Assembly (NCBI GenBank): GCA_029210695.1
Contig: JARGFH010000008.1
Coordinates: 62,001-97,326 of the forward strand
DNA: 35,326 bases
Source: Acidimicrobiia bacterium
Lineage (GTDB): Bacteria > Actinomycetota > Acidimicrobiia > Spongiisociales > JAHEDJ01
Direction of reading: 5' to 3'
The position numbers and the translations under genes were made by a program. Under the pieces are notes generated by a model. The model saw nothing but the letters and a program-made list of their open reading frames with translations. It was not told where the DNA came from and ran no database searches. Shown piece after piece: positions 10,059 to 35,326 of the stretch (position 1 is its first letter; each line of letters starts with the position of its first letter).

Positions 10059-10065
10059 GCTGCTC

Positions 10066-13708: not shown

Positions 13709-13709
13709 C

Positions 13710-14690
13710 TCATCCCTCCCTCAACGCCAGGGCGGCATCGATGGCGAAGTACGTCAAGACGATGTCCGCTCCGGATCGAACGATGCCGGTCAGTGATTCG
13801 AGCATGACCCGGTTCCTTTCGATCCAACCCTGTGCCGCCGCCGCTTCGATCATCGAGAATTCACCGGACACCTGATAGGCGGCGATTGGCAGGTCGGTGC
13901 GATCCCGCAGGTCCCTGATGATGTCCTGGTAGGGACCGGCCGGCTTGACCATGATCATGTCGGCGCCCTCGCCCTCGTCGAGGGCGGCTTCCCGCCTGGC
14001 TTCGCGGGCGTTGGCCGGATCCATCTGATAGGACCGCCGGTCGCCGAATGTCGGTGCAGAGTCGGCTGCCTCGCGGAACGGCCCGTAGTAGCCGGATGCG
14101 TACTTCACGGAATACGAACAAATGGTGACGCCTGTGTGGCCCGTCTCGTCCAAACTGGTGCGGATGGCGCTCACCCGTCCGTCCATCATGTCGGACGGTG
14201 CGACGATGTCGGCGCCCGCGTCTGCGTAGGCAGATGCAGCCCTGGCGAGCAGGGGTAGAGCGGCATCGTTGTCGACGGTGTCTCCGGTAATCGGCCCGCA
14301 GTGGCCGTGACTGGTGTACTCGCACAGGCAGACATCCGCCCAGCGCACCAGGCCGGGGGCGGCGCCGGCGACTGCCTCTATGGCTTTCGGAACCGGCCCG
14401 GCCGGATCCCAGGCCGGCGAACCGATCTCGTCCTTGTGGTCGGGGATCCCGAAGAAGATCATCCCTCCCACCCCGGCATCTTCTGCCCGTTTGGCCAAAT
14501 CGAGGATGCCGTCGACGGAGAGATGATAGTGGCCCGGCATCGACGCAATCGAGCGGCGGACTTTTTCGCCGGCGACCACGAACACCGGCAGGACGAACCG
14601 GGCCGGATCCAGGCGGGTCTCCGAGACCGTTCGCCGCAACCTATCCGTTCTGCGGAGTCGCCGGGGGCGGATCGTCGGGAACTGACTCAT
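13710..14690 (-). CDS. hemB: Porphobilinogen synthase (Zn-type)
   Basis: RPRRLR, DVCLCEYTSHGHCG, APSDMMDGR, YGPFREAA, DRRSYQMD, MVKPA, AYQVSGE. ATGA overlap with hemD. Confidence 0.96.
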   Translation of the reverse strand: MSQFPTIRPRRLRRTDRLRRTVSETRLDPARFVLPVFVVAGEKVRRSIASMPGHYHLSVDGILDLAKRAEDAGVGGMIFFGIPDHKDEIGSPAWDPAGPVPKAIEAVAGAAPGLVRWADVCLCEYTSHGHCGPITGDTVDNDAALPLLARAASAYADAGADIVAPSDMMDGRVSAIRTSLDETGHTGVTICSYSVKYASGYYGPFREAADSAPTFGDRRSYQMDPANAREARREAALDEGEGADMIMVKPAGPYQDIIRDLRDRTDLPIAAYQVSGEFSMIEAAAAQGWIERNRVMLESLTGIVRSGADIVLTYFAIDAALALREG

Positions 14691-15370
14691 GCTGCAACTC
14701 CCAGGTGTTTGGCGACGGCTTCGGCCAGGCTCTGGAACGTCGGAGCTTCGGCAACAATCGTCGCCGAAGTTCCGGTCCGATTGACCGCCAGACGGGTGCT
14801 CTCTCCGATTGCCGCCACCGGCTTGTCGAGCGGTCGTGACAGCTGCCATCCGGACACCGCCGACGGAGAAGCGAATGTGATCACATCGACGGGATCGGAA
14901 GGAGGGGCCAGGGGCACGCTGGTGTAGATGATTGGCGCGGAGAACTCTCTGGCATGGCCGGCCAGTTGCTGCAACGGCCTGGGATCGGCTCCGCGTCCAT
15001 GGGGCCAGGCGACGGATCTGCCGGTTACGTGTGGGGCCAGCATCTCTACGAGTTGTGCCGACCCGCCGGTGCCGATCATCGCCGCCCGGCCGCCACGCGC
15101 TTGCACCGCCCGGGCGGTGGCAGCTCCGACGACTGCAAAGTCGACGGCAGGAAGGGGACCTTCCGGCCAGAGAATGTCGATCGTTCTCTTTGAACTGACG
15201 ACCAGTAGATCCGTGAGGAGGGCGATGGCGCGAACCGCCTCGAGTTCCGGCTCAGCAGAGGACTCGACGCCGATGCAGGGGAGCAGCACAGTCTGCAAGC
15301 CGAGGAACGTGAACGGCATGGCGGCGGCTTGCGCCCGATCGGCACTGGTGGTGACGGCCACGCGTTTCAT
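14687..15370 (-). CDS. hemD: Uroporphyrinogen-III synthase
   Basis: RVAVT, LPCI, AVVGAATA, ITFASPSAV, AAIGEST; positioned between hemC and hemB. Confidence 0.85.
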   Translation of the reverse strand: MKRVAVTTSADRAQAAAMPFTFLGLQTVLLPCIGVESSAEPELEAVRAIALLTDLLVVSSKRTIDILWPEGPLPAVDFAVVGAATARAVQARGGRAAMIGTGGSAQLVEMLAPHVTGRSVAWPHGRGADPRPLQQLAGHAREFSAPIIYTSVPLAPPSDPVDVITFASPSAVSGWQLSRPLDKPVAAIGESTRLAVNRTGTSATIVAEAPTFQSLAEAVAKHLGVAA

Positions 15371-16230
15371 AACCCCAACTCCTTCCGTGCCGCCGCAACC
15401 ACGCCGGCGGGGTCATCGCCGAGGACCGAAGTGCGGCGAGCCCCGTTGTGGTCTTCGATGAAGGCATCCATGCGGATCCGGCCGTCGTGCCACTGCGCCA
15501 GGGCACCGAGTGCCGACCGGCATCCCGCCCCGGTCTCGGTGAGGAGCAGCCGCTCGCCGGCGACCAGAGGCGCCAACTCGTGGTCGTCGATGACCGCGAC
15601 GAGACCTCGGATGGGCCCGTGATCGCGCGTCTCAACGGCCAGCACACCCTGCCCCGGGGCAGGCACCATAGAGTCGAGCGTGAGAACCTCAGAGATGTCG
15701 TCCGTGTGACCGAGGCGAGTGAGCCCGGCCTCGGCGAGGATTGCTGCATCGACCTCGCCACCGGCAACCTTCCGGAGGCGCGTATCGACATTGCCGCGCA
15801 GTTCCCGGGTGGAGAGATCCGGGCGTATGGCTTTGAGCTGGGCAATGCGACGGGGGCTGCCGGTCCCGACCACGGCCCCTTCGGTCAAGTCGGCGAGCCG
15901 TGCTCCGACGACGGCGTCCCAGGGAGTCGCCCGCTCGGGCAACGCCGCCAGGACTAGGCCGTCTGCTTGGGCGGTGGGAAGATCCTTGAGTGAGTGAACG
16001 GCGGCGTCGGCCCGGCCGTCGAGTACGGCGGCCTGTACGGCTCGAACGAATGCGCCCATTTGGGTGAGCTGCGCGACAGGCGAGTTCCGATCAAGGTCTC
16101 CGGTCGAGTCGATCTCAACGAGTTCGATCCTCATGTCTCCGTGGACGGCGCGGAGCCGATCGGCTACGCGCCCGGCCTGGTAGAGGGCCAGTGCCGAACG
16201 ACGGGTGGCGAGACGGATCTCAGTCGGCAC
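15367..16230 (-). CDS. hemC: Hydroxymethylbilane synthase
   Basis: LATRRSALALYQA, AVHSLKDLPT, VGTGSPRR, LRGNVDTRL, PAPGQG, GAGC cofactor Cys. Confidence 0.95.
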   Translation of the reverse strand: MPTEIRLATRRSALALYQAGRVADRLRAVHGDMRIELVEIDSTGDLDRNSPVAQLTQMGAFVRAVQAAVLDGRADAAVHSLKDLPTAQADGLVLAALPERATPWDAVVGARLADLTEGAVVGTGSPRRIAQLKAIRPDLSTRELRGNVDTRLRKVAGGEVDAAILAEAGLTRLGHTDDISEVLTLDSMVPAPGQGVLAVETRDHGPIRGLVAVIDDHELAPLVAGERLLLTETGAGCRSALGALAQWHDGRIRMDAFIEDHNGARRTSVLGDDPAGVVAAARKELGL

Positions 16231-17452
16231 CCGCCACCCCGAAGACCTCGGCGAGGATGGGTGCGGCGCTCGCACCGTTCTCGGCCGAACTCAGGTAGGA
16301 CAGCGGACGGTGCAGGACGCGGTGCGCCACGGTCTGGGCAAGCTGGTTGAGAACGGCGAGTTGCTCATCGTCGACTTGGAGTCTGCCGGAGAAGCGGCTC
16401 ACCTCTTCATCAACGGCCCGCCGGGCCTCGGCGAGTATGGCGGAAATGACGGGACCAACCTGATGATGGTTCGTCAGCCTGGCCCACATGTCCGTCGCCA
16501 ACCCGTCGAGCACTTCTTCGACCTCGGTGGAGGTCTGGCGGTCACGCGCCCGGTCGGCGAGGTCGTCCAGATTGACGTAGCGAAGGCGTCCGTTGCATCC
16601 GTTCGGAGAAAAGTCCGGTGGCATCGCCAGGTCGATCAGAAGGAGTTGGTCCGGTCTGGCACTCAGTGCCTCCGCCAAAACACCTCCGTCGAAGAGCTCG
16701 CGTTTGGATGAGGTAGCGCTGATGACGACAGGGAATGAGGCGAGGGCCTTCGGCGCGTCGGTCATATGCCGGACCTCGTCCGCATCGAAAGCGACGGCGT
16801 CCGGGCGACGTGCGAACACGGTCACTCTCGGCGTACGCCCGGCGGTGCGCAGTGTCTCGGCGGCGGCGTGGGCCATCGCCCCGGCCCCGAAAATGGCTAC
16901 CTCTCCGGCGCCGGCGGCGAGGTCGGCGGCGACTAGCGCCATAGACCCGACGCCAGTTTCGGGCAGTCGCTTCCGAGCGGCTCGACCGGCCCGCACCGCG
17001 GATTGAAGGAGCTTCTCGAACATGCCCCCCGCCGCTCTATGGCTGCGGCTCATTTCGAGGGCAGTGCGGAACTGACCGAGCACCTCGGGTTCGCCGACGA
17101 TGGGGCTATCGAGGCCCGCTGCCACCCGGTAGAGGTGGTGGACGACGTCGCGATCGAACCTGACGACCGGCGCGGGGAGGTCTGCGTCCGGGTACAGCAG
17201 TTCGAGCACCCGCCTGTTGGCTCTGTCGCAACCGACCGACACCACTTCGACTCGCAGACAGGTGGCAAGGACAAAGGCGTCGACACCTACCGCTCGGACC
17301 CGGTTCAGAGCCTCCTCGAGATGAGGTCCGTAGAGAGCCAGCCGCGCTCGGTCCTCGCTGGATGTGTCGGGATGAGCGAACGTCGCCGATGTGACCCTGA
17401 AACTCGGATGAGCCACTGCCGCGTGCGTATGCCCTGCGATCGGCGTTGACAT
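16220..17452 (-). CDS. hemA: Glutamyl-tRNA reductase (divergent)
   Basis: TCLRVE (canonical TCNRxE), VAAGLDSPIVGEPEVLGQ, GAGAMA, IDLAMP; first gene of the hem operon. Confidence 0.88.
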   Translation of the reverse strand: MSTPIAGHTHAAVAHPSFRVTSATFAHPDTSSEDRARLALYGPHLEEALNRVRAVGVDAFVLATCLRVEVVSVGCDRANRRVLELLYPDADLPAPVVRFDRDVVHHLYRVAAGLDSPIVGEPEVLGQFRTALEMSRSHRAAGGMFEKLLQSAVRAGRAARKRLPETGVGSMALVAADLAAGAGEVAIFGAGAMAHAAAETLRTAGRTPRVTVFARRPDAVAFDADEVRHMTDAPKALASFPVVISATSSKRELFDGGVLAEALSARPDQLLLIDLAMPPDFSPNGCNGRLRYVNLDDLADRARDRQTSTEVEEVLDGLATDMWARLTNHHQVGPVISAILAEARRAVDEEVSRFSGRLQVDDEQLAVLNQLAQTVAHRVLHRPLSYLSSAENGASAAPILAEVFGVAGAD

Positions 17453-19266: not shown

Positions 19267-20862
19267 ATGGATGATATGTCGAACACGCCACCGGACCCGG
19301 AAGACCAAGACGCACTTGAGGTGCCGGAGGCCGAATCCACCGGTTCCGCCGACGATGATTACACCATTCAATCGTTGTACGGCCATCCGCTGGCGGCGCT
19401 GGGCGGGGCAATCATGCTGGCCGGCATCCTGGTCTTCATCGTGCTGCTCGGTCTCGACTACCTCTCGGAGACCGAGAACCCCTATCGGTCACTCGTCGCC
19501 TTCATCGGGGCGCCCGCGATCGGGTTCCTCGGCCTGCTCCTGTTCCTGATTGCCATCCGCGTTCAGGTCTCCTCGGCCAAGCGGCACGGTCAGCACATCC
19601 GCTGGCGGTTGACGATCATCCCGTCGAGCGCCCGCTATATGCGCAACTTGTGGCTGTTCCTGGGCCTCAGCGCCGCGCTTGTCATCATCTTCATCTATGC
19701 AGGGTTCAGGGGGTACGAGGCCACCGAGTCCGTGGCATTCTGCGGAGAGACCTGCCATACAGTGATGGGTCCGCAGATCGAGACCTACGGCGACTCTGCC
19801 CACGCCCGGGTGCCGTGTGTCGAATGCCATATCGGCCCGGGTACCTCATTCTGGGTGCAGTCGAAGATCGACGGTATCCGGCAGGTTGTGGCCGTCGCAC
19901 GGAACTCCTACACCCGGCCGATCCACACGCCGGTGGTGAGCCTCCGGCCTGCTCCAGAGACGTGTGAGCAGTGTCACTGGCCGGAGCAGTTCTACGGCCA
20001 GAAGTTGCAGACGAAGCAGTACTACCGGACCGACGAACAGAACTCGCCGTGGACCATTTCCCTCCTCGTCAACATCGGGGGTGGCAACCCGCAGACGGGC
20101 CGGGCCGAAGGCATCCACTGGCACATGGTCACCGACAGCGTGGTCGAGTACATCGCGGTGGATGAGAAGCGTCAGGACATCCCGTGGTTCCGGGTGACCA
20201 AGCCGGATGGGTCCGTGCAGGTGTATGCCGATCCGACCGCCACGTATCCCGATCCCAACAGCGTGCTCACTGAGAAACGGGTCATGGACTGTGTCGATTG
20301 CCACAACCGCCCGAGCCACAAGTTCACTCCTCCCGCAGTGTCGGTCAACCTCGCTTTGTCGAAGGGCGAGATCTCCGGCGACCTTCCGTTCATCCGTGCA
20401 GTGAGTGTCGACCTGCTCAACGCCGAATACGCAACGCTCGACGAGGCGTTGGCCGGCATCCCGGCCGGCTTGCGGGAGTACTACGAACAGCAGTATCCCG
20501 GGCGGGTCGCAGAACTGACTGAGGACATCGACCAGGCGATCACTGTGCTTCTCGGGATCTACCAGGCCAACTTCTTCCCTGAGATGAACACCGACTACCG
20601 GGCGCGGGAGAACAACCTCAGCCACTTCGTCAACGACGGGTGCTTCCGGTGCCACGGCGGTGACCAGGTCAACGAGGTCGGCGAACCGCTCTCGGCCACC
20701 TGCGACAGCTGTCATGAGATCATCGCGCAGGGCCCGTCTGCGGATCTCAACGAGTTGCAGAACGACATCGCCGGTGTGGACTTCGTTCACCCGCTCGAGA
20801 TCGGCGACATCTGGGAAACGGTGAAGTGCACGCAGTGCCACACCCGGGAGTCCGGCTACTAG
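19267..20862 (+). CDS. NapC/NirT-family 7-haem membrane cytochrome c (ImcH-like quinol dehydrogenase)
   Basis: Three N-terminal TM segments. CGETCH, CVECH, CEQCH, CVDCH, CFRCH, CDSCH, CTQCH. SAHARVPCVECHIGPG, LRPA.ETCEQCHWP, GIHWH, MDCVDCHNRPSH. Confidence 0.88.
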   Translation: MDDMSNTPPDPEDQDALEVPEAESTGSADDDYTIQSLYGHPLAALGGAIMLAGILVFIVLLGLDYLSETENPYRSLVAFIGAPAIGFLGLLLFLIAIRVQVSSAKRHGQHIRWRLTIIPSSARYMRNLWLFLGLSAALVIIFIYAGFRGYEATESVAFCGETCHTVMGPQIETYGDSAHARVPCVECHIGPGTSFWVQSKIDGIRQVVAVARNSYTRPIHTPVVSLRPAPETCEQCHWPEQFYGQKLQTKQYYRTDEQNSPWTISLLVNIGGGNPQTGRAEGIHWHMVTDSVVEYIAVDEKRQDIPWFRVTKPDGSVQVYADPTATYPDPNSVLTEKRVMDCVDCHNRPSHKFTPPAVSVNLALSKGEISGDLPFIRAVSVDLLNAEYATLDEALAGIPAGLREYYEQQYPGRVAELTEDIDQAITVLLGIYQANFFPEMNTDYRARENNLSHFVNDGCFRCHGGDQVNEVGEPLSATCDSCHEIIAQGPSADLNELQNDIAGVDFVHPLEIGDIWETVKCTQCHTRESGY

Positions 20863-20889
20863 GACATGCTCCCTCCAGGGACCCTCGCG

Positions 20890-21404
20890 CGTCTCTCCCC
20901 ACGGTGGGGGAGACTAAAGAGACGTCTTTCTTCAGGGTGCGTCGTGAACGCGTTTCTCCCCCACGTTCGTGGGGGAGATGTCGAGTCCTAGAGACAGAGG
21001 GGGCCGCTGCCTGTGGTGTGCCCCCCTTCCCTTCGCTCGCTTTGCTCGGTTCGGGACTCCCCCCACTTCCGTGGGGGGAGAACGCGGTTGTGGCGTGTGC
21101 AGCAGCGAACCCCTTCTCGCGTTTCTCCCGGCCTGTCCTTGTCGCAAAACAGGGGGGCGCCGCGAGGGGGGTCTTCGGGCAGGGTGCGTCGTTTGTTGAC
21201 GCGTTTCTCCCCCACGGAGTGGGGGAGATGTCGAGTCTTCGAGACAGAGGGGGGCCCCACTCAGAAAGGTGCCCCGCTCAGAAAGGTGCCCCGCTCAGAA
21301 AGGTGCCCCGCTCAGAAAGGTGCCCCGCTCAGAAAGGTGCCCTCCTCCCCTTCACTCGCTTTGCTCGGTTCGGGACTCCCTCTACTGCCGTGAGGGGAGA
21401 ACGC
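20890..21404. repeat. Cluster of REP-like palindromic repeats (duplicated A-B unit) between convergent genes
   Basis: A (TCTCCCCCAC..GTGGGGGAGATGTCGAGTC..GAGACAGAGGGGG) at about 20933-21006 and 21180-21258. B (CTCGCTTTGCTCGGTTCGGGACTCCC..GGGGAGAACGC) at about 21029-21084 and 21348-21404. Confidence 0.8.
21260..21342. repeat. 17-bp tandem repeat CTCAGAAAGGTGCCCCG, about 4.9 copies
   Basis: Copies start at 21260, 21277, 21294, 21311 and 21328. Confidence 0.95.
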
Positions 21405-21425
21405 CGAGGGGCGCGAAGCCCAGCT

Positions 21426-22934
21426 TTACGGCGCGCCGGCCCCGATCCACTCCTTGAACGTCGCCAGCTCCGCAGCAGTGAAGGCACCCGGATGGCCTCC
21501 GGCCTCCTGGACGGTGATGAGCGTGCTCCCGGCGGCGTCGCCGGGAAGGATCGCATCGCCGCTGGCCAGCGCATTCGAGAGCGAGGACAGATCCACGCCA
21601 CCGAGGGCCACCGTGTCGGAGTGGCAGGCGCCACACCGCAGAGCGGCCGTCGCTCCGATTCCACCGTCCCAACTCAGTGCTGCGGTCGGCGTTGCGCCGT
21701 CACCGGCGGCTCCGGAGTCGATCCACGCAGTGACCAGGGCCAGATCTCCGGCGGTCAATTGGCCGGGATGTCCTCCGGCCTCCTGGACCGTCACCAGGGA
21801 ACTGGCAGCGGCGTCACCGGTGACAACAACTCCCTCGGAACCCAGCGCCCCCTCGTATGACGAGAGGTCGAGTCCGCCCATTGAGTTCGAGGCTGAGTGG
21901 CAGGTACCACAGTTATCGGCCAGTAGGGGTCCAACCGTCGCCCATGTGACTTCGCCCTGCGGCACCGTGGTCTCGGTGGGGAGGGTGGTGTCGGGGATGA
22001 CGATGGTCGGGAGCGGGTTGTCTTCAGAGAGCGCCGGTCCGCTCGGGTTCTGGAACTCAGGTGGCAGCGGTTTGAAGGCCACTACGTCTTCGATGGGCTC
22101 GATGGTGGCGATAGACGTATCTTCGAAGCTCACGAACCAGTAGATGCCGGCCATCATGAGGACCGCCACAACGCCGAAGGCGAGCAGGAACTTGCGCCGC
22201 CGCTCAGCCATCTGGGCCGGGGTCGCCTGCGGACCGGACTTGCCTGCCTCTATGGCCTCGAGTTCCAGGCCGTGTTCTTCGATCATCTCTACCCGGCTGA
22301 TGTAGCCGGTGAAGATGCTCCTGTTGAAGTGCTTGATGTGCACGTGGTAGATGTGCCAGACGAGGATGGCCAGCACTGCCAGGATCGCCTCTCCACCGTG
22401 AGCTGCTTTGGCGGCCGGGATGAAATCGCCGGGGAGGAACTTGGCGGTGGAAATCGGATTCCACAGCATGTAGCCGGTGGCGATCATCAACACGGTGCCC
22501 CAGACGAACGACCAGTACTCGACTTTCTCCGCGAATGTGAACCGACCTTGTTTCACCGGTTCGTGCCGCCGTCCCGCCAGCAGCGCGACCGATTCTTTGA
22601 TGGCAATCCAGTCGCGCTTGCTCGGGACCATGGCCCGTGGCCGCCGTTCGACGTACGTGCGATATCCGGCTTTTCCAAAGTGCCAGATGACGGCGAGCAT
22701 GAGGATGGTCGCCAGCCACCGATGAATAACGCGCACTTGCGGCAACCCACCGAGGAACCCGATCCACCACTGAGAGATGGCCGACTCGAAGAACTTCTGG
22801 ATAAGTCCGGTGAGGCCGAGGCCGGCGAAGCTGATTACCTGGACGGCATGCTCGATGCGATCCGCTTTTCCAAAACGCAGTATCCGGTCATCCGCTTGGA
22901 CGTCCGCTGCTTGGCGCTCGAGGACGTCAGACAC
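21426..22934 (-). CDS. Cytochrome b (FdnI/HydC-like, CbcL/CbcB-type) fused to two C-terminal monohaem c domains
   Basis: RIEH..LTGLIQKF, VIHR..IWH, GRFTFAEKVEYW..WGT.LMIATG.MLWNP, AHGGEAILA..VWHIYHVH. CGTCH and CGACH lie in duplicated GG.DLSS..GDAA.S.L..WI..GA domains. Confidence 0.88.
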   Translation of the reverse strand: MSDVLERQAADVQADDRILRFGKADRIEHAVQVISFAGLGLTGLIQKFFESAISQWWIGFLGGLPQVRVIHRWLATILMLAVIWHFGKAGYRTYVERRPRAMVPSKRDWIAIKESVALLAGRRHEPVKQGRFTFAEKVEYWSFVWGTVLMIATGYMLWNPISTAKFLPGDFIPAAKAAHGGEAILAVLAILVWHIYHVHIKHFNRSIFTGYISRVEMIEEHGLELEAIEAGKSGPQATPAQMAERRRKFLLAFGVVAVLMMAGIYWFVSFEDTSIATIEPIEDVVAFKPLPPEFQNPSGPALSEDNPLPTIVIPDTTLPTETTVPQGEVTWATVGPLLADNCGTCHSASNSMGGLDLSSYEGALGSEGVVVTGDAAASSLVTVQEAGGHPGQLTAGDLALVTAWIDSGAAGDGATPTAALSWDGGIGATAALRCGACHSDTVALGGVDLSSLSNALASGDAILPGDAAGSTLITVQEAGGHPGAFTAAELATFKEWIGAGAP

Positions 22935-24165: not shown

Positions 24166-25564
24166 GGCACTCCGCGATTCAGTGGGGTGTGCTGGTTGCG
24201 AGTAGGTCCCAGTTGGGTTTTCCGGCGTAGAGGAGGGTTCGGATCCGGTAGTTGCGGAAGTTGGTGATCCTGAACGCCATCCGCTTGACGCGCTTGAGGA
24301 GGTTGTTGACCGCTTCGGTTGGTCCGTTCGACACCCGAGCCCGGTGCCAAGCCACGATCTGATCCTTCCACCGGGCGATGGTGCGGCCGAGGGAACGCAC
24401 CTCGAGGGGCATCGTCCGGTCTCCGAGGTCGTCGATGAGCTGGTCGACGAGCTCACAGGCGAGGTCGTGATCGTCGAAGTGGTAGATGGACCGGATGGTC
24501 TCTTTGGCATGCCAGGTCATCTGCACCTCACCCCGAGGGTCGCCCGCCTTGAGCAGACCGGTCAGTTTCAGCTCGCCGGCTTGGTCGAGCCGCTCATGGG
24601 CTTTGGTCAACAACCGCCGTGCCCGATACAACGGGTCGTCTTTTCTGCCTCGATGCCCGACGGTCTCGTTCTGGACTCGGCGGCGGCACTCGTCCAGCTT
24701 CGAGTTGGCGAGGCGTACAAGGTGGAACGGGTCGGCCACCTGGACAGCGTCGGGAAGCATCACATCGAACACTTTCCGGTACGGTCCCGACAAGTCCAAC
24801 GTCGCCCACCGGATCCGGCCCCGCCACTCGCCTGTCTGCTTCTCGAGCCATTCGATCGGACCCGAAGCGGCGCGGCCGGCCACCACATCGAGCAACTGGC
24901 CGGCTTCCACGTCGACGATCTGAGTGGTCCACTCCTGGCGGCGCCATTCCCCGACACGGCACCGCAACGTCTCATCCAACCCCAGGGCCGACACGTCTCC
25001 GAACCGTGCCGGGTCGTCGACCAGGGCTTGACCGTAGGCAGCGACGGCGTCCATCACCGGATGCCAGCCGCAGCCCAGATCCTTGGCCACCTCCGTGACT
25101 GATCGGCCATGACGACCCACCTGCACCGTCGCCCACCGGCCCGCCCGATCCGTCAACTTCAACCGGGATGCGGCGATTGCCGGTGCCTGCTCGGTGAACG
25201 ACCCGCACCTCAACGGGCATGCCCAGCGGATCTTGCGCCACGCCAACACCGTCGGCCGTCCGAAACAGGGCAGATCCGTCAACTCGACCATGTTCCGATC
25301 GTTCACCGTCACCGCCGACCCACAGGCGGGACACGACGGACGTTCTCCTCTGGTCTCGACCATCACTCGAAGATGGGTGTCGGCATCGGTCACCTCCAAC
25401 ACGTTGACGGCGGGCAACCCCACCAGCAGCTCGCACATGGCAATAGCATCACACGACACAGGGACTCCCGAATCTCGAAGGCCTAAAACACCTCCAGATT
25501 CGTCGAGTCCCTGTTACTCGTCGAGGATCCCCACCGATCACACCCCACTCAAACGCGAAGCCCC
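24166..25564 (-). mobile_element. Complete ISL3-family insertion sequence (1399 bp)
   Basis: 26-bp imperfect IRs (GGGGCTTCGCGTTTGAGTGGGGTGTG / GGCACTCCGCGATTCAGTGGGGTGTG, 21/26 match). 8-bp TSD CCTTTGGC at 24158-24165 and 25565-25572. Confidence 0.95.
24179..25459 (-). CDS. ISL3 family transposase
   Basis: CPACG zinc finger, LGLDET, TLDLSGPY, VADPFHLV, GHRGRKDDPLY, SNGPTEAVNNLLKRVKR..F...FRNYR. Confidence 0.95.
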   Translation of the reverse strand: MSCDAIAMCELLVGLPAVNVLEVTDADTHLRVMVETRGERPSCPACGSAVTVNDRNMVELTDLPCFGRPTVLAWRKIRWACPLRCGSFTEQAPAIAASRLKLTDRAGRWATVQVGRHGRSVTEVAKDLGCGWHPVMDAVAAYGQALVDDPARFGDVSALGLDETLRCRVGEWRRQEWTTQIVDVEAGQLLDVVAGRAASGPIEWLEKQTGEWRGRIRWATLDLSGPYRKVFDVMLPDAVQVADPFHLVRLANSKLDECRRRVQNETVGHRGRKDDPLYRARRLLTKAHERLDQAGELKLTGLLKAGDPRGEVQMTWHAKETIRSIYHFDDHDLACELVDQLIDDLGDRTMPLEVRSLGRTIARWKDQIVAWHRARVSNGPTEAVNNLLKRVKRMAFRITNFRNYRIRTLLYAGKPNWDLLATSTPH

Positions 25565-25589: not shown

Positions 25590-26780
25590 TCAGCCCTCGG
25601 GTGGTTGGTAAGTCCTCGCGTAGGCCGCCTGCTCCAGGTCGTTGGCAGACGGCAGTGGCGTCGCAACGGTGAAGAGCACGACACGGTTGTTCTCGCGGTC
25701 GGCCAGCGCGAACGACCCATCCGGGGCCACGGCGAGCTTCTCGGGGAAGTTGAGAGATGTCTCCGCGATGCCGGCCGCACCGAACTCCGAAATCAGCTCC
25801 CCATCTGGGTTGAGAACAACGATGTGTCCGGCGCCGGAGCACTTGTCTTGTGCTCTGAAGGTGTCCACCACGTAGAGATTTCCGTCGGATCCGATGGCGA
25901 TTCCTCGCGGAAGTTGCCAGAAGCTGACGATTTCTCCATCGACGTCACGCTCACCGGAGATCCACAGGACTTCGCCCGTCTCGTCGAGGGCGACTATGCG
26001 GCGGTTGAGCGTGTCGGCAACGTAGAACGTGCCGGTCTCCTCATCAATTGTGAATGCGTCGGGGAAAGCGAATTCCCCGGCCCCGGACCCCCTGGCGTCG
26101 CCTCCCCAGCGGTCGACAACGTGGCCCGATCGATCGAAGAAGTAGAGCCCGTCGTTGCTGGCGGCCACGATCTGGTCTTTCCACACGCGTACCTCGTAGG
26201 GGGAGAACCCGTCCGGTCCAAAGACGTCGAAATCCTGGTCTACTGCCGGGAAGGTCTCGATGTATCTGCCGTCAGCTGAATAGATCAAGATCGCTCGAAG
26301 CGCCCAATCGGCGACGTACAACCTCTGCTGATCCGCGGAAAACGCCATGCTGTAGGGTCCCCATAGTTTGCCGGGGCCTTCGTCCGCTCCGATGACGTTG
26401 ATGAGCTCCTTCTCGGGTCCGAATACGAGAATTCTGCCGTTACCGGTGTCGGCCACGAGCACATTCCCGTTCACATCGAACTGTGTCGCTAGGGGTTGGA
26501 GCAGTAACTCGTCGGCACCCGACCCGAATCCGATGATGGTTTTCTCGAATACCATTGGACAGTCGGCTGGGAGCGCCAGGTTTCCTGCATCGGAATCCGG
26601 ACGCAATATCCAGATCAGCGTTATTGCCAGGATACCCGCCGCGATTACGAGCAATACGATGAGGCCCAGCAGCATCCTTCTTCCGCGGCGATCGGCTTCA
26701 ACAGGCTCGGTTCCTCCCGTTGAGGTTGGGGGTGGTGGGCCGGGGGTTGTGCCTGGGCCTTGAGGTGGGTTTGCTTCCAT
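25590..26780 (-). CDS. NHL-repeat (six-bladed beta-propeller) protein with N-terminal TM anchor
   Basis: Repeated VADTGNGRI, LYVADW, FAFPDAF..FYVADTLNRRI, LPRGIAI..LYVVDT, LNFPEKLAV..LADRENNRV. Confidence 0.9.
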   Translation of the reverse strand: MEANPPQGPGTTPGPPPPTSTGGTEPVEADRRGRRMLLGLIVLLVIAAGILAITLIWILRPDSDAGNLALPADCPMVFEKTIIGFGSGADELLLQPLATQFDVNGNVLVADTGNGRILVFGPEKELINVIGADEGPGKLWGPYSMAFSADQQRLYVADWALRAILIYSADGRYIETFPAVDQDFDVFGPDGFSPYEVRVWKDQIVAASNDGLYFFDRSGHVVDRWGGDARGSGAGEFAFPDAFTIDEETGTFYVADTLNRRIVALDETGEVLWISGERDVDGEIVSFWQLPRGIAIGSDGNLYVVDTFRAQDKCSGAGHIVVLNPDGELISEFGAAGIAETSLNFPEKLAVAPDGSFALADRENNRVVLFTVATPLPSANDLEQAAYARTYQPPEG

Positions 26781-26788
26781 GGTTGCTC

Positions 26789-27445
26789 CTATGGTGTCGT
26801 GGCAGCGGCACCGAGCCTGGCGAGCGCATCGCGGATGTCGGTGTTTGTGGGGTTGAAGGCTGACGCTTGTTCGTATGCGGCGATTGCACTATCGATCTCG
26901 CCCTGCGCCTCCAGCGCTCTACCGAGCCCGAAGTGCGCGTCTGAGACGAAACGATTGTCCGCGATGGCCTCTTGGAAAGCCTCCTGGGCTTCCGTGGGCC
27001 GATCCATCTCGAGCAGCAGGTCGCCGAGAGCGATGAACGGCAGCGCCTTGTTTTCTCGCGGAGCGTATTCGGCCGACCGGGTGAGCATCTCGGTTGCCCT
27101 GTTTTGATCTTCCCTCCTCACCATGACAGCGAGGTCCAGTAGTGCCGACCACTGGTTGGGGTCGATTTCCAGTGCGCGCTCGAGTGTTTGCCGAGCTTCT
27201 TCGGCTTCGCCGTTTCGGAGCAGTGCATTTCCGAGGCCGGCGAGAGCCCAGGCGGCACCAGGGTTTTTATCAACGGTGTCGCGCCAGGATGTAATCTCGA
27301 GGGCGGTCATCGTCTCCGGTACGGGATCGGGGCGGAGCTGTAGAAAGACGATCGCGCCTCCCAGACCGGTCACGACGATCATCAGGACAACCACGATGGT
27401 CAGAAGACCAGTCGGGATCGGCTGCGCTCTCTTACTTCCAGTCAT
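26789..27445 (-). CDS. Tetratricopeptide repeat protein with N-terminal TM anchor
   Basis: LAGLGNALLRNGEAEEA..LERALEIDP, ALGDLL, AHFGLGRALEAQGEIDSAIAAYEQA..FNP. Confidence 0.9.
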   Translation of the reverse strand: MTGSKRAQPIPTGLLTIVVVLMIVVTGLGGAIVFLQLRPDPVPETMTALEITSWRDTVDKNPGAAWALAGLGNALLRNGEAEEARQTLERALEIDPNQWSALLDLAVMVRREDQNRATEMLTRSAEYAPRENKALPFIALGDLLLEMDRPTEAQEAFQEAIADNRFVSDAHFGLGRALEAQGEIDSAIAAYEQASAFNPTNTDIRDALARLGAAATTP

Positions 27446-28091
27446 CTGCCAATACCTCTACTTCGACTTCGTCCCGTCGGGTTTCCAGCCAGTCTACGAA
27501 TGCGGCTTCTTGCATGTCTCCAGTTAGTTCATCCATCAAGGAGTTCCTCACCTCGATGAAGGGGAGCGTGCCACCAGAGTCTTTGAACTGGTCGGGGTTC
27601 GCGTTGTAGTAGGCCTCGGCATTTTCCTCGGTTGCCTCGATGCCTTCAGTGATCGCCCGGTACACCCGTGACGAGGACTCCTGGAGGTACAAACGGCGGC
27701 GTGCCTCCTGCTCGTCGATTCCGTTTTGAGCCAGCCAGGCTTCCCACTCGTCGCCGCCGCCGATGGCAGCGCGTAGATCGTCTAGTGCTTGGTCAACATC
27801 GCCATCGGAGACGGCTACGCCTCGCTCTTCGGCTTCAATCTCTACGATGATGTCGTCGGTGAGCGTCCGAAGCACAACGACCCGCCAATCCTCGCCAAGC
27901 GCTACCTCGATATCGCCCCCGTGTAATTGCGCGATGCCTGCAATGCGAGAATCCGCCACCGATTCGTAGACAGGACGGCCATCCACTGTGGCGATGATCG
28001 GCCCGGCGGGTTCAGACGATTCACATGCCGGGGCAGTGATAGCCAAGACCGCGAGGAAAAGAGCACTCCCGGTGTTGCGGCGCAGCTTCAT
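27432..28091 (-). CDS. SurA N-terminal/PrsA-like foldase lipoprotein (no clear parvulin domain)
   Basis: Signal peptide ending APAC, IIATVDG, VLRTLTDD..VEIEAEERGVAVSDGDVDQ, EAYYNANPDQF, WLETRR. ATGA overlap with the upstream gene. Confidence 0.8.
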   Translation of the reverse strand: MKLRRNTGSALFLAVLAITAPACESSEPAGPIIATVDGRPVYESVADSRIAGIAQLHGGDIEVALGEDWRVVVLRTLTDDIIVEIEAEERGVAVSDGDVDQALDDLRAAIGGGDEWEAWLAQNGIDEQEARRRLYLQESSSRVYRAITEGIEATEENAEAYYNANPDQFKDSGGTLPFIEVRNSLMDELTGDMQEAAFVDWLETRRDEVEVEVLADDWK

Positions 28092-28924
28092 CCTGATGTA
28101 CCTCCGATGGGTAGTGGTCGTGAGCGGGGTCGAACTCCGGCGTGACAAGCGTCCGAGCAATAGGTCGCTGTGTGGCAGGTGCCACAGTTGTTGGCACCTC
28201 CTTCATCTACATCGGCGCCGTGGGTTGCGTTCCAGCCGTCCGGGTGGTTGATGTCATGACAGTTCGCGCAGGTTGAGGCGCTATGGCAAGCGGTGCAGGA
28301 GTCGCGATCGGTCCCGTCAAACGACCCCGGTAAAATGAGGCTGTGATCCTGCCCGGGATGGAACGAATCGGGAAGGTGACAGGTGCCGCAGTCGACGTAG
28401 CCACCACGAGGTATGGCGAAGTCGTAGTAGTGGGGCAATGACCCGGGCACATGGCAGTACTGGCACTGGCTCTCCGACGCAACTTGTGTATGGCATTCGG
28501 CGCACACTCGCTCTGGGGGTGCCAGCGGGTTCGGGTGTGTCAGATCTGTGTGACAGGCTTCGCAAGTGAGACCGGCTTCCGCATGGGTGGGATGGTTGAA
28601 GTACAAATCGCTGGACCGAACGTTCGTCCAGTAGTTCTCGTGGCAGTCGGCGCACTCAGAGAACTCCGATGGCACCGCGGCTTCTGCTGTCGGCTGTTGC
28701 CAGACTGGCAGAACCCAGCGATCGATGGACTGGTCCGCTTCATCGACGAACCGCGAGAGGAGGCCGGGCCGTTCGTCGCTGCCTGCCCACAGCACGACCA
28801 CGTCTTCAGCAAATCGTCCAAGGCCGTCCCTCGCATCGGGTGAGACGAGCACCGCTCCGACAATTGCACCTTCGATAATGAAGAGGCTGATGACAGACGC
28901 GACGATCAGGGTGAATCTGTTCAC
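28088..28924 (-). CDS. Membrane-anchored multihaem cytochrome c (8 CxxCH + 1 CxxxCH)
   Basis: N-terminal TM. CADCH, CEACH, CAECH, CQYCH, CGTCH, CTACH, CANCH, CGTCH, CSDACH. GTGA overlap. Confidence 0.88.
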   Translation of the reverse strand: MNRFTLIVASVISLFIIEGAIVGAVLVSPDARDGLGRFAEDVVVLWAGSDERPGLLSRFVDEADQSIDRWVLPVWQQPTAEAAVPSEFSECADCHENYWTNVRSSDLYFNHPTHAEAGLTCEACHTDLTHPNPLAPPERVCAECHTQVASESQCQYCHVPGSLPHYYDFAIPRGGYVDCGTCHLPDSFHPGQDHSLILPGSFDGTDRDSCTACHSASTCANCHDINHPDGWNATHGADVDEGGANNCGTCHTATYCSDACHAGVRPRSRPLPIGGTSG

Positions 28925-29949
28925 GGCACTATGTCCCAGTCGTAGAGCCGTTGCTCGGTGTGCACCGAGTGTTTGACATGGCAGACACTGCAGTCGCGGA
29001 TGGAATGGCACGTGGCGCAAGCCGACGCTTGAGGCGTTTCCACCGACCGGAAGTGCAGCCCAACCCAGTTTTCCGGATGCGGTATTTCGGTCCCGTGGCA
29101 GCCTGCGCAGAAGGAGGGCGCATGACACGACGTACAGCTGGCGCCGCGATCTCCGATGCTCTCCGGCCCGTGCATCGTGGTCCAGTCTCCCGGGTGCGGA
29201 TAGGTCGCTCCGACGTGACACGCCGAGCAGAAGTCTGAGGCGTGGCAATCGACACACGCGGTCGGTTCGGCGACGGCGTCGCGGCCGTGGGTGAACGAGT
29301 AGTCGGCTGGATGCGGATCCCCTGGACGGGAAACGGCTGCGGTCGTACCCGGATGAGCGACCTGGCCGTGGCAAGCGTCGCAGGCAGCATCTGGTCCCGG
29401 ATGCCCGGCGGCCACCAGTTCAGAACTCGCCGCTATCTCGATGTGACACTCACTGCATGCCCCCGGGGCGAGAACCCCCTGTGCGGTGGGTAGCCGAGTG
29501 ACTTGCTGGGCGGCTTCCCTGATCAGAGTCGGTACGTAGACCAGGCCGCCGAGGAGACCGTGGGTCGTACCGTGACATGCGAGGCAGGCGACATCAGCAT
29601 GAATGGATTGGCCATGACTCGTTGCGGCCGACTCGGCAGTGTGGCACGAACCACAGAACGCCCGTGAGGAACCTGGATAGGTGGTTGTGAAGCCGATCGC
29701 AAGCGCGAATAGAGCTGCCACTCCAAGCACCCAGAGAAGCCATCTGCGCGGTCCGTCGGATGCTCCCTCGAGCTCGCGCGGTAGCTTCCTTCGATCGGGA
29801 AAGTCGGTCGACGGCGGAGTCTGGCTGTTTCCATCCGGTGGCTCGGGAGGGTCTGGAGGCGATGGATCGCTCTGCGACGGCGGTGGCGGTTCGACACCGT
29901 TGCCGCGGAATGCCTCCGGAGGCCCCTCGCCGGGCGGCTCGAAGGTCAT
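28921..29949 (-). CDS. Membrane-anchored 10-haem cytochrome c with NapC/NirT-like N-terminal region
   Basis: Pro-rich N-terminus, TM, FCGSCH..SIHADVACLACH, CSECH, CDACH, then CVDCH, CSACH, CTSCH, CAGCH, CATCH, CSVCH. ATGA overlap. Confidence 0.88.
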   Translation of the reverse strand: MTFEPPGEGPPEAFRGNGVEPPPPSQSDPSPPDPPEPPDGNSQTPPSTDFPDRRKLPRELEGASDGPRRWLLWVLGVAALFALAIGFTTTYPGSSRAFCGSCHTAESAATSHGQSIHADVACLACHGTTHGLLGGLVYVPTLIREAAQQVTRLPTAQGVLAPGACSECHIEIAASSELVAAGHPGPDAACDACHGQVAHPGTTAAVSRPGDPHPADYSFTHGRDAVAEPTACVDCHASDFCSACHVGATYPHPGDWTTMHGPESIGDRGASCTSCHAPSFCAGCHGTEIPHPENWVGLHFRSVETPQASACATCHSIRDCSVCHVKHSVHTEQRLYDWDIVP

Positions 29950-30857
29950 GGTCGCTCCCCTGGTTCTTCGTTCCCAGAGGTGTCGCCATCGAGGGTCGAA
30001 TCTGCCTCGCCTGTGGTTTCGGCTGGTGGCGCGAGGCGTCGAAGGTCGGCTGAGTAATCCTCTACACCCCGTGTGTGGCAAGAAACGCAGGTGTTGGGAT
30101 CGTGGCACTCGAAACAGCCGGCACCACCGTCGGTTCGCACAACCTCAGGATGAGCCTCTCTCCAGACCGGAACGTCGGGGTTCTGCGGGTGGTGGCAGGC
30201 GTCGCACTCATCACGAGTGGTCAGATCTGGTCCGCGCTCGTGACAGCTCATACACGATTCGATGCTCGAGTCGAACGTAGCCCGCGCATGCGGATATCCC
30301 GCCCATCCGTCGTCGTGCGGTATGTCGACACCATGGCACGCCGTACAGAAATCTTGTCGCGAGTGGCAAGTCTCGCACAGCGACTGGCTGATCAGGGCGC
30401 CAGAGCCGTGAACGTCCCGCCACTCTGCAGTGAAGTGGCTCTGGGGCGGAGGCACAGTGGCATTGTCGTGGCACCGGAGGCACGGCAGCTCGAGAGCCGG
30501 CCCGGCGTCTAGGTGGCACGAAAAGCAATCCTCCATGTTCGGTGTCAGCGGGGGAGTGCGATCGTGCGTATCGAGACCATGGCAATTGCCGCAACCGACG
30601 TCACCAGAAGTCGAGAAGTGCTCTTCGTGTCGAAATCCGATGAGTTGCACCAGTCCGGCTTGCAGGGAGTGCTCGATGTCATCGTGGCATTCGAGGCACG
30701 CGTCGAAGTCGGAATCCGCCGCCACGGCGGCGGCTGCAATCGGGATCAGCGGTGGGTCGTTTGCCGGATCGTCCGTCAACTGCCAGGCGACCAACGCAAC
30801 AACGGTGAGGAGTCCGCCGAGCGCAAAGGGCCGTGGTCGTCGTCTCATCGCGACCAC
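29946..30857 (-). CDS. 10-haem cytochrome c (c3/c7-like N-terminal part plus dihaem repeats)
   Basis: N-terminal hydrophobic segment. CLECH, CGNCH, CFSCH, CLRCH, CETCH, CTACH, CMSCH, CDACH, CFECH, CVSCH. Start may be ATG 30848. Confidence 0.88.
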   Translation of the reverse strand: MVAMRRRPRPFALGGLLTVVALVAWQLTDDPANDPPLIPIAAAAVAADSDFDACLECHDDIEHSLQAGLVQLIGFRHEEHFSTSGDVGCGNCHGLDTHDRTPPLTPNMEDCFSCHLDAGPALELPCLRCHDNATVPPPQSHFTAEWRDVHGSGALISQSLCETCHSRQDFCTACHGVDIPHDDGWAGYPHARATFDSSIESCMSCHERGPDLTTRDECDACHHPQNPDVPVWREAHPEVVRTDGGAGCFECHDPNTCVSCHTRGVEDYSADLRRLAPPAETTGEADSTLDGDTSGNEEPGERP

Positions 30858-30909: not shown

Positions 30910-31335
30910 CTACTCCTCTTGGACGAACGGGCGGAGAGGGATGTGGCCGCCGTTTAGTAATGTGTCGTAGGTCACCGAGAAGACCCGCCTCAGCTCGTCG
31001 AAGGCGTCCTCGCAGACGGGTCGGATCGGACAGTCGGCTGCGGTGTCACAGGTTTCGGGATGCTCGCAGCAGATGTTGACGAAGAGTGGGCCTTGCACGG
31101 CCTCTATGACGTTGAGCAGGCTGATCTCGCTTGGATCGCGCGCAAGATCGATCCCGCCGTTGACTCCTCGTCTGGTGGTGAGTATGCCCGCTTTCGACAC
31201 GGCCGCCACGATGCGCCCGAGGATCGATGGGGGTATCCCGGCCCGTTCCGCGACTGCTCCGGTGGAGGTGTGCCCGGTGCGGGCTACGTCGAGAACACAG
31301 CGCACGGCATAGTCGACCTCGCGGGTGATCAACAC
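30910..31335 (-). CDS. Rrf2 family transcriptional regulator with Fe-S ligand Cys motif
   Basis: ITREVDYAVR, RRGVNGG..LARDPSEISLLNVIEAVQG, NICCEHPETCDTAADC. GAGAGGGG RBS before GTG 31335. Confidence 0.92.
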   Translation of the reverse strand: MLITREVDYAVRCVLDVARTGHTSTGAVAERAGIPPSILGRIVAAVSKAGILTTRRGVNGGIDLARDPSEISLLNVIEAVQGPLFVNICCEHPETCDTAADCPIRPVCEDAFDELRRVFSVTYDTLLNGGHIPLRPFVQEE

Positions 31336-31519
31336 CGTGGGCCCCCTCTCGACCACTCACGGCATTCACAAACCATTGCGGACCCTCGCCTCTCTCCCAT
31401 GTGGCCCAACCCGCGGCTCCTGACAGCCATCCCGGGTCCAACCGCGACGGTACTCGCAGTCAACTGGCGTCCTGTAGGGCCCAATGGCATTCGCGGGGGG
31501 ATGGAGGTCGGGTCTGTCA

Positions 31520-33022: not shown

Positions 33023-33189
33023 ATATCCTCCGCCACCCTAAGAGTAAATCATACCTATTTCGGGCGATTTCGGTAGTGCGATGCGCCCCGTTGATGGGGC
33101 CGAATGGCCCTGTCGCGATAGGGCCATTCCTCAACTTGACGCTGTGTCGGGAAACACATAGAGTGATGAATGAGCCAAGTGCTATCGGC

Positions 33190-33214
33190 ATATTTGACCT
33201 AAAAGGTCTGATTA
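33190..33214. promoter_or_regulatory. Candidate Rrf2 (IscR type-1-like) operator in the divergent promoter region
   Basis: ATATTTGACCTAAAAGGTCTGATTA: 25 bp, GACCT-AAA-AGGTC core, GAC-N7-GTC spacing. Confidence 0.5.
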
Positions 33215-33339
33215 CGTCGAGGTTAGGGATTACGCATCGCCAGGCTTCTTGGCGGCATCGCGATGCGGGTTGCGAGAAACAGAAGGGGAGCATGCAGCTC
33301 CCATGAGTCGGGTTCCGAACCCGACAGGGAGGAGGGCGA

Positions 33340-34470
33340 ATGAGACGGCGATTCAGAACCGTCGGACTCGTTGTGTGTGTAATGGCTGCGATGTTGGTCC
33401 CGGTAACGGGGGCGATGGCGCAGGATGCGAGCAATGTTGGTGATCCAGCTGCCGGGGCAGTTGATCCGCATGGTGGGTACTCGTCGACTACGCAGTTCTG
33501 TCTGCAATGTCATGACGTCCATAATGCAAACGGATCGTACGGTCTCATGGGGGCAGTCAGTGTGACAGCCGTCTGTCAGACTTGCCATGCGTTGCCGAGG
33601 TTGGGTGGAGGCGGAGTAACGGTTCCGAGCCACAATCCAACGCCAAATCTCAACCCCGACGGGTCGGTCAAGACACTCGGTACGACGTCGTCGTTCAGTG
33701 CCTACGACCTAACGGGTGGGGTGGGCGAAGAGCACACGATCGGTGCTACAGACATTGACGGCAACCCGATGACGCAGTCTGCCTACCAATACCGTGGACG
33801 GTTCCTCGGAACCGATTCTGCCGTTGCGGCGGGTGCGGGCACTGCAGGTGAGTACGCCGGCGGTCTTTACTGCGCCAGTTGCCACACGGCACACGGCGAG
33901 TACGGCCAGGTTGTGAATGATCCGGTCGAACCGACGGCAACCAGTCCTGGCGACGAGGGTGTGCACTTCTATCAGGGGAATACGCAACTCTGGTTGGACT
34001 ACTCCGGCGACGCGACAAACCCGAATGCCGACTGGTTCGCATGTGAAGCCGCGGCCGATGTAATGATTGGCACCGGCGTCGGCACCGCCTGTGCGAAGCG
34101 ATTCGACGCGCTGACGATCAACGATGAAGAGGGCAAGCCCTCTTCGCTGTTCGGCTACAAGCTGCTGTCGTCATATCCGAATCACACATGGGGGAGCAAG
34201 TCGAGCTTCAAGTTCGACAACCACGCGCATGATGTATCGGTGTGGTGCTCAAAGTGCCATGATTCGAAGTCGATCGATACTGCGGGCATTCACAATCACC
34301 CGACGGGCTGCCTGGCTTGCCACGGCAACCCTTCGGATGTCGACTCGCGAGGTCGATTCACTGTTGCGACGGCCTTCGACTTCCCGCATACGTCGCCAAA
34401 TGCGGCCTTCCTGCGGGCGTTGCCTGACGCACTCTGCATCAGCTGCCACACGAGGGGAAGCCTGCCGTAG
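33340..34470 (+). CDS. Secreted hexahaem cytochrome c, OmcS/CwcA-like motif architecture
   Basis: Sec signal ending AMA. PHGGY..CLQCHDVH, CQTCH, LYCASCHTAHGEY, WCSKCH..HP, CLACH..FPH, LCISCH at the C-terminus. GGAGG RBS. Confidence 0.85.
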   Translation: MRRRFRTVGLVVCVMAAMLVPVTGAMAQDASNVGDPAAGAVDPHGGYSSTTQFCLQCHDVHNANGSYGLMGAVSVTAVCQTCHALPRLGGGGVTVPSHNPTPNLNPDGSVKTLGTTSSFSAYDLTGGVGEEHTIGATDIDGNPMTQSAYQYRGRFLGTDSAVAAGAGTAGEYAGGLYCASCHTAHGEYGQVVNDPVEPTATSPGDEGVHFYQGNTQLWLDYSGDATNPNADWFACEAAADVMIGTGVGTACAKRFDALTINDEEGKPSSLFGYKLLSSYPNHTWGSKSSFKFDNHAHDVSVWCSKCHDSKSIDTAGIHNHPTGCLACHGNPSDVDSRGRFTVATAFDFPHTSPNAAFLRALPDALCISCHTRGSLP

Positions 34471-34495: not shown

Positions 34496-34530
34496 GAAGT
34501 GGGGAGCCGAAAGGCTCCCCACTTCTCTGT
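34496..34530 (+). terminator. Intrinsic terminator after the hexahaem gene
   Basis: GAAGTGGGGAGCC-GAAA-GGCTCCCCACTTC (13-bp stem, GNRA loop) followed by TCTGT. Confidence 0.8.
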
Positions 34531-34622
34531 CCCACCCCAAACCCCTTCTTGCGTCACTTCTGGGCGTATAGCGCCCGTGGCTTCAGGTGGTGTGGGCGAC
34601 GGGGTGGCTTTGGAGGTGGGTT

Positions 34623-34822
34623 GTGGGCCGTCCCAAGATTCCGTGGTTGGTGGCGCGTGAGGCGTTGTTGGCGATAGGCAGGGGTGCAACGATTGATCAG
34701 GCTGCTGTGGTGGCTGGTGTGTCACCGCGGGCGGTTGATCAGCTGGTCAGCGAGCATGGCCGCATGTTGCATTTGGAAGGTCATAAACCGCGGGCTGATG
34801 TGTTGACGGTGGGAGAACGTGA
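34623..34822 (+). pseudogene. IS30-family transposase N-terminal fragment
   Basis: GGAGG RBS, HTH-like GATIDQAAVVAGVS, then LTVGERE (IS30 LSxxERxxI). Interrupted at the start of the next IS. Confidence 0.6.
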
Positions 34823-35251
34823 AGTTACGTCCATTGACGTGGTGTACGGGAGGGTCTGAGGGTCCTTCCTTATCGGTGTTCACCGCGTCAGCCTCACGAA
34901 CACGTGCAAGCGAGCGTGAGGAGTAACGCGGTGATCAATAAAAGCATGGACGCGTTGGTGTGGCTGCGCAAGCAGCTCGAGACCGGCGACAACGACTTGC
35001 TGCGTGAGATGGTGCGCAGCTTCGCCGAGGAGTTGATGGGAACCGAAGCGGATGTGGTGTGCGGTGCCGGCTACGGGGAGGTCTCGGTGGACCGGGTCAA
35101 TAGCTGCGGACTGGTTCGTATTTCCCGGACTGGCTCCTGGATGCGAGGACCCGTTCGGAGCGGGCGTTCATCCAAGTCGTCTCGGAAGCCTACGTTCGGG
35201 GCGTTTCCACTCGCAGGGTCGAAGGGCTGGTGGAGGCGTTGGGGATCACGT
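34823..35251 (+). pseudogene. IS256-family element remnant (left end plus deleted, frameshifted transposase)
   Basis: AGTTACGTCC..GTGGTGTACGG end. DLLREM..LMGTEADVVCGAGYGE..RVNS, then in another frame LRTGSYFPDWLL..RSERA..YVRGVSTRRVEGLVEALGIT; the RNGYR..IPK segment is missing. Confidence 0.85.
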
Positions 35252-35326
35252 TGACGCCGCTCGCTGAAATTCCCCAGGGTTGCTCATCGAAATTCCTCAC
35301 CTTGGGTTGGGTTTGGATGCTAGTTG
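35252..35326 (+). mobile_element. Probable terminal end of an IS21-family element (runs off the window)
   Basis: TG start with repeated GAAATTCCCCAG / GAAATTCCTCAC boxes, as in IS21-type ends. It truncates the IS256 reading frame. Confidence 0.5.

Follow-up and report, generated by a model that had tools for sequence, protein, structure and literature searches.

The closest described systems to the one reported here are OmcS, OmcE and CwcA. The bacterial wire structures in the papers cited here come from Geobacter and Desulfuromonas (PMC13712944). In OmcS (GSU2504 of Geobacter sulfurreducens; PDB 6EF8/6NEF), haem 5 obtains its His from the adjacent subunit (PMC6584659, PMC7096707), and only one of four related hexahaems in that organism is known as a wire-former (PMC12977616). 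PMC12977616 also cites work that links GSU2500-GSU2493, an eight-gene block beside omcS-like hexahaems, to maturation and secretion. The clusters of the tetrahaem OmcE (7TFS, 9YUQ) contain beta-propeller proteins and multihaem cytochromes, with tetratricopeptide repeat (TPR) genes in their larger form, and a large beta-barrel (PMC13712944). A Gram-positive, OmcS-like wall wire has already been proposed: CwcA (Tfer_0075, Thermincola ferriacetica), a secreted hexahaem with 18% identity to OmcS, is modelled as a wall-crossing polymer, by homology and for a protein never purified in soluble form (PMC7911101). Here we describe a hexahaem cytochrome, P0001, encoded in a 35,326-nucleotide stretch of an Acidimicrobiia bacterium (assembly GCA_029210695.1, contig JARGFH010000008.1, positions 62,001 to 97,326; hereafter the window), and propose that it is the repeating subunit of an OmcS-like head-to-tail polymer.

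P0001 (positions 33340-34470, + strand; 376 aa) is a secreted hexahaem of a conserved family, with remote homology to OmcS and linkage to NHL, SurA-like, TPR and multihaem genes. A preliminary description, made from the sequence alone, had counted six haems, and six CxxCH motifs are present, at C54, C79, C178, C303, C324 and C366 (precursor numbering; structure-model numbers are 27 lower); in 20,000 shuffled versions of the protein the count never rose above two. The cleavable signal and the lack of a membrane anchor that it described also agree with the hydropathy profile. The sole hydrophobic segment is N-terminal (19-residue windows starting at residues 4-11, maximum 2.28) and, with Ala-Met-Ala at 25-27, points to a signal peptide of residues 1-27 (33340-33420, +). 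Past residue 30 hydropathy never exceeds 1.16, leaving no later membrane segment. We refer to a "head" module (33469-33588, +), comprising His44, haem 1 in a CxxCHxxH motif with the candidate donor His61 (33520-33522), and haem 2, and a "tail" module (34297-34467, +), comprising His320, haem 5, His350 of an FPH motif, haem 6 and a C-terminal Gly-Ser-Leu-Pro latch.

OmcS and P0001 are both secreted hexahaems of similar size and mostly coil; their haems 1-4 are colinear, and in each protein haems 1 and 3 have the CxxCHxxH motif. A profile built from 88 family members, selected from the search matches as full-length or nearly so, had OmcS as its best match (E 2e-13), in a single stretch that brings haems 1-4 into register, and MtrA next (E 5e-8). 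A control profile of a neighbouring paired-CxxCH protein favoured MtrA (2e-15) over OmcS (7e-7). The homology is remote: a single-sequence search with P0001 misses OmcS, and the HMMER output contains no in-register alignment of haems 5-6. Among the OmcS motif pairs drawn up in the preliminary description, those at haems 1, 2, 3 and 4 (the last with its HP) were in register, while EHTIGA~GHNIVA, GYKLL~AYRIL and the haem-6 pair were not. The fold search that it had proposed placed OmcS first of 48,161 chains, as a weak match (root-mean-square deviation 5.3 Å over 177 residues, 22% identity). Two true OmcE wires differ by a similar 5.2 Å over about 180 pairs (PMC13712944).

P0001 also differs from OmcS. 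Haem 5 of P0001 has no adjacent xxH, its His being displaced into the FPH motif; the conserved C-terminal Leu-Pro is met by a different C-terminus of OmcS in the HMMER alignment; the family has an optional insert with a Cys pair; and the host is a monoderm in which the P0001 gene is single-copy. On present evidence P0001 would appear to work like OmcS, while strict OmcS-type membership is not established given the differing haem-5 motif and the weak fold match. OmcE is a weak sequence match to P0001 and likewise carries CxxCHxxH at haem 1, but has only four haems. CwcA resembles P0001 as a Gram-positive secreted hexahaem with low OmcS identity, and comes from another phylum; no match named CwcA was among those listed in the first family search or the second profile search. 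Listings of literature pairing OmcS or nanowires with Actinobacteria, Actinomycetota or Acidimicrobiia contained no paper on the P0001 family, though Wang 2019, Shen 2025, Baquero 2023 or their supplements may list homologues.

The first family search returned 36 proteins including the query, and two profile searches listed 150 of 1,325 and 120 of 167 matches. Of 35 genome loci found, 32 are titled as Actinomycetota lineages, two as 'Bacterium HR12' and one as a planctomycete. The gene is patchy: counting this genome in both cases, it occurs in 6 of 61 genomes of relatives and in 14 of the 401 sampled from the whole phylum. Six non-motif His are near-invariant in the 88-row alignment: His44 (77/84), His61 (74/83), His132 (84/86), His185 (87/87), His320 (87/88) and His350 (88/88). 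These would suffice to make all haems bis-His, with a presumed pairing to individual haems, and match a His..CxxCH..His..CxxCH unit repeated three times. In the last of these units the second His is shifted into the FPH motif, which aligns with the xxPH of the MtrA paired motif. Among 167 distinct six-haem proteins bearing an FPH or YPH motif, CxxCHxxH occurs at haem 1 in 158 and at haem 5 in none, so that the haem-5 difference noted in the preliminary description holds family-wide. The C-terminus is equally constrained: 162 of the 167 end in Pro, 152 in Leu-Pro, and 124 terminate exactly 6 residues past haem 6.

The His of a CxxCHxxH motif probably ligates the haem two places upstream, and OmcS His16 is reportedly such a donor between subunits. 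At haem 1 this His would have no such partner inside its own chain. Among the 16 multihaem open reading frames (at least four haems) of this genome, only P0001 and the divergent 11-haem neighbour P0002 (31520-33022, − strand) carry CxxCHxxH at haem 1, and in the five others with the motif it first occurs at haem 3 or later.

In structure prediction, two P0001 copies with four haems gave a score of 0.45 (runs 0.45, 0.33 and 0.50), and the best of three controls scored 0.00. Of 30 solved pairs, 20 reached the corresponding mark for a complex, as did one of 23 single chains; these numbers apply only roughly to the P0001 model. The runs share at least 78% of contacts, with a predicted local distance difference test (pLDDT) score of at least 80. 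The predicted interface is asymmetric, pairing residues 320, 327 and 360-376 of one copy with 47-55, 60, 69, 111, 147-155, 179-190 and 282 of the other, and thus keeps one head and one tail unoccupied, at which further copies could be added in the same way. As in OmcS, the predicted head-to-tail contact lies near haem 5. Its most confident pairs involve the last four residues of P0001. At positions other than Cys and His, conservation is 0.62 in the interface (n = 33) and 0.47 elsewhere (n = 224), in rows that are related rather than independent. A C-terminal latch of this kind would explain both the fixed Leu-Pro end and the aromatic residue that some members carry at 282, features absent from OmcS in the HMMER alignment.

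We therefore read P0001 as the repeating subunit of an OmcS-like head-to-tail polymer, with a probability of roughly 0.6, and this Gram-positive lineage probably builds an electron-conducting cytochrome chain. Each copy would use its C-terminal Leu-Pro and the end with haems 5 and 6 to bind the face of the following copy that carries haems 1 and 3. His61, lacking an upstream haem of its own, would complete haem 5 in the adjoining copy, as happens in OmcS, and the interface would so repeat into a polymer. After Sec export and then haem attachment by System I, membrane-anchored NHL, SurA-like and TPR proteins may help assembly. Electrons from the quinone pool would pass through cytochrome b and multihaem neighbours to the chain and across the monoderm wall to outside acceptors; the chain could be a wall-spanning oligomer or a long filament, and electrons could flow in either direction. 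If so, a family in 14 of 401 sampled genomes of the phylum would bring extracellular respiration by wires to uncultured actinobacteria of soil, sediment and groundwater.

Some caveats apply to this proposal. The preliminary description had asked whether the haem-1 xxH His ligates a neighbouring subunit. In the model Val60 of one copy lies in the interface with Cys327 and His320 of the other, but His61 itself is not named there (4 of 12 haems were modelled). The pass of the two-copy model may also echo OmcS, and fast evolution of surface cytochromes is known (PMC12977616), which bears on the comparison of loci below. The polymerisation along or through the wall first suggested for P0001 is partly supported: P0001 has a predicted self-interface, and lacks the OmcS-type motif at haem 5.

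The gene neighbourhood resembles that of the known wire-formers by family type. All on the − strand, P0002 is followed by a regulator of the Rrf2 family (30910-31356; PF02082), three multihaem cytochromes that have 10, 10 and 8 CxxCH motifs and are hydrophobic near the N-terminus (28088-30857), a SurA-like, peptidyl-prolyl isomerase-like chaperone (27432-28160; PF13624 E 5e-4 and NF000809 E 8e-9, both below cut-off), a TPR protein (26789-27445) and an NHL beta-propeller protein (25590-26780; PF01436), the last two each with an N-terminal hydrophobic segment. The omcS-companion (osc) block GSU2500-GSU2493 of Shen et al. 2025 reportedly encodes a propeller, a prolyl isomerase, multihaem proteins and a barrel, and the NHL, SurA-like, TPR and multihaem companions here match this and the omcE-type clusters at that level. 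The large beta-barrel of OmcE clusters has no counterpart among the 30 window proteins scanned (two of them without a family; no genome-wide search was made), and such a barrel is not expected in a monoderm. The window also encodes a haem biosynthesis operon, a NapC-like protein, a cytochrome b and several multihaem proteins. Across the 35 loci, many of them short, an 11-haem-type gene was matched in 21, NHL in 15, TPR in 10 and SurA-like in 2. In three further loci, L085-L087, SurA-like (directly downstream) and NHL genes come after a seven-haem relative on the same strand, and the 19 kb retrieved there contain no 11-haem gene.

Comparison with a close relative, L008, suggests that this block belongs with the subunit. 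Flanking genes are 87-92% identical in DNA, which places the host in Actinomycetota, and genes between and around the diverged tracts 80-97%, the 11-haem gene among them at 88%. By contrast, identity falls to 39% for the subunit, 41-42% for two multihaem proteins, 43% for the SurA-like, 46% for the TPR and 54% for the NHL protein, as low as their identity to other families. Because two separate tracts have changed together, the subunit and the NHL/TPR/SurA-like/multihaem block appear to have to match, as judged from one genome pair. In L008 the subunit gene is followed by 10- and 5-haem genes and System I maturation (ccm) genes, which in this genome lie on contig C94. Transposase-like fragments, read by eye, occur at window positions 34587-35326 and at the end of C94. 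The break in the assembly probably stems from insertion-sequence fragments at the two contig ends, and the window contig and C94 would then form one large haem/cytochrome block.

Several paralogues resemble the subunit at one end only and fit the role of chain ends. P0002 starts with the head module of the subunit (hhalign probability 99.4 across 46 columns) and has no Leu-Pro tail, making it a candidate cap or adaptor; its head His is invariant in 20 of 20 rows (P0002 and 19 of 21 loci, two truncated ones excluded). Conversely, 9 of the 167 hexahaems keep the tail and lack the donor His, and in both headless loci of a metagenome scan (2 of 4 loci, on contigs from one assembly series) the headless hexahaem lies directly behind a complete copy. 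In 19 of 22 seven-haem relatives, an extra haem is placed ahead of the head. This could signify that Actinomycetota build a cytochrome wire of their own design, with a Leu-Pro latch and a shared His, ends set by paralogues, and subunit and assembly block exchanged jointly between close relatives like pilin alleles. One end would be formed by the head-only 11-haem neighbour. The opposite end would be taken, in other lineages, by tail-only hexahaems or by heptahaems that carry an additional haem at the N-terminus. We advance this extended scheme only tentatively. The 11-haem protein lacks the His282-type motif, has not diverged with the subunit and was not found near three loci, and this genome encodes no headless paralogue. 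If the scheme is true, dedicated end paralogues would supply the tip and anchor candidates missing from OmcE operons (PMC13712944). With the predicted latch, and with paralogues that have only a head or only a tail, it becomes testable how wires begin and end and how they form with no outer-membrane barrel.

The same paralogues could instead be partners in a finite, hetero-oligomeric conduit, in which head and tail join P0001 to other multihaem proteins of the locus, such as P0002, in a short chain spanning the wall. The head module of P0002 and the presence of its gene type in 21 of 35 loci would suit this arrangement, ends used heterotypically in the cell could still yield a predicted homodimer, and most OmcS paralogues are not known as wire-formers. 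We nevertheless consider it unlikely. Most subunit members keep both head and tail, the loci L085-L087 lack an 11-haem gene in the fetched sequence, and this gene has stayed 88% identical to that of L008 while the subunit fell to 39%.

Less likely still is a monomer, secreted or associated with the wall, that serves as a hexahaem electron carrier or terminal reductase and satisfies its six haems within one chain. Here His282, a seventh His present in 77 of 87 rows, or His318, present in 66 of 88, would serve as the spare ligand; the weak fold match to OmcS and the frequency of paired CxxCH motifs among non-polymeric cytochromes are in keeping with this. However, position 282 holds Phe in L008 and an aromatic residue (Phe, Tyr or Trp) in 10 members, which fits packing on the neighbour's C-terminal Pro better than iron ligation. 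A monomer also leaves His61 and the near-invariant Leu-Pro at its fixed distance unexplained, and of the 23 single-chain proteins only one reached the mark for a complex. An enzyme whose haem 5 is open (five-coordinate) is very improbable, as is a haem or electron store: the adjacent xxH His is indeed absent in 167 of 167 members, but the displaced His350 is invariant and aligned with the MtrA xxPH His, and no catalytic multihaem family scores well.

Returning to the P0001 gene, the two extra Cys for which a disulfide had been suggested, Cys235 and Cys251, lie in the optional, beta-rich insert (34042-34092, +). They are kept in 46 and 45, respectively, of the 47 alignment rows having the insert, and probably form the disulfide. 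The ribosome-binding site already described is AGGAGG at 33330-33335 (+), identical in L008. Downstream of the stop, a GC-rich 13-bp hairpin (34496-34525, +) is a probable terminator: it has a z of −6.9, no equally stable structure arose in 200 shuffles, and it is identical in L008. It has a weak U-tail and received no call from the terminator scanner, so that the gene's own terminator claimed earlier is likely rather than certain. The divergent intergenic region holds a sigma70-like site (33136-33164, +) that is kept in L008, a match at chance level (1 found, 0.7 expected). It also holds the palindrome GACC-N5-GGTC (33196-33208), a single occurrence in the genome that recurs upstream of the hexahaem relatives in L008, L040 and L043. 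The palindrome is a candidate operator, possibly for the nearby Rrf2 protein.

Other architectures occur within the family and beside it. At L033-L035 (P0101) there are two tandem hexahaem paralogues, one fused behind beta-helix and Ig-like domains that together span about 1,100 aa, possibly a stalk, adhesin or anchor form. At L043/L045 (G011:C9 16600-17720) a hexahaem copy is split into two frames of 3 + 3 haems, with an intact seven-haem copy elsewhere in the same genome. Long 11-haem-type companions at L003 and L018 carry a ZU5 domain in an N-terminal extension. In the genome studied here, a protein at C169:189-2054 (G000) has six spaced monohaem-type domains, Pro/Thr linkers and a C-terminal hydrophobic segment. 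It is reminiscent of the 'haems on a string' protein PgcA.

Elsewhere in the window, two open reading frames that are putative genes, 2687-4465 (−, 592 aa) and 20826-21860 (+, 344 aa), have no Pfam or NCBIfam family. The haem biosynthesis run (7780-17452, −) encodes HemA, HemC, HemD, HemB, a HemL-like aminotransferase, HemE, a HemN-like radical SAM protein, ferrochelatase and a flavin oxidase, and is adjoined by a protein with an EB_dh (ethylbenzene dehydrogenase gamma-type) haem-binding domain (6428-7573, −). An intact ISL3-family transposase of 426 aa (24179-25459, −) lies between the NHL gene and a 9-haem cytochrome gene, which are adjacent in L008.
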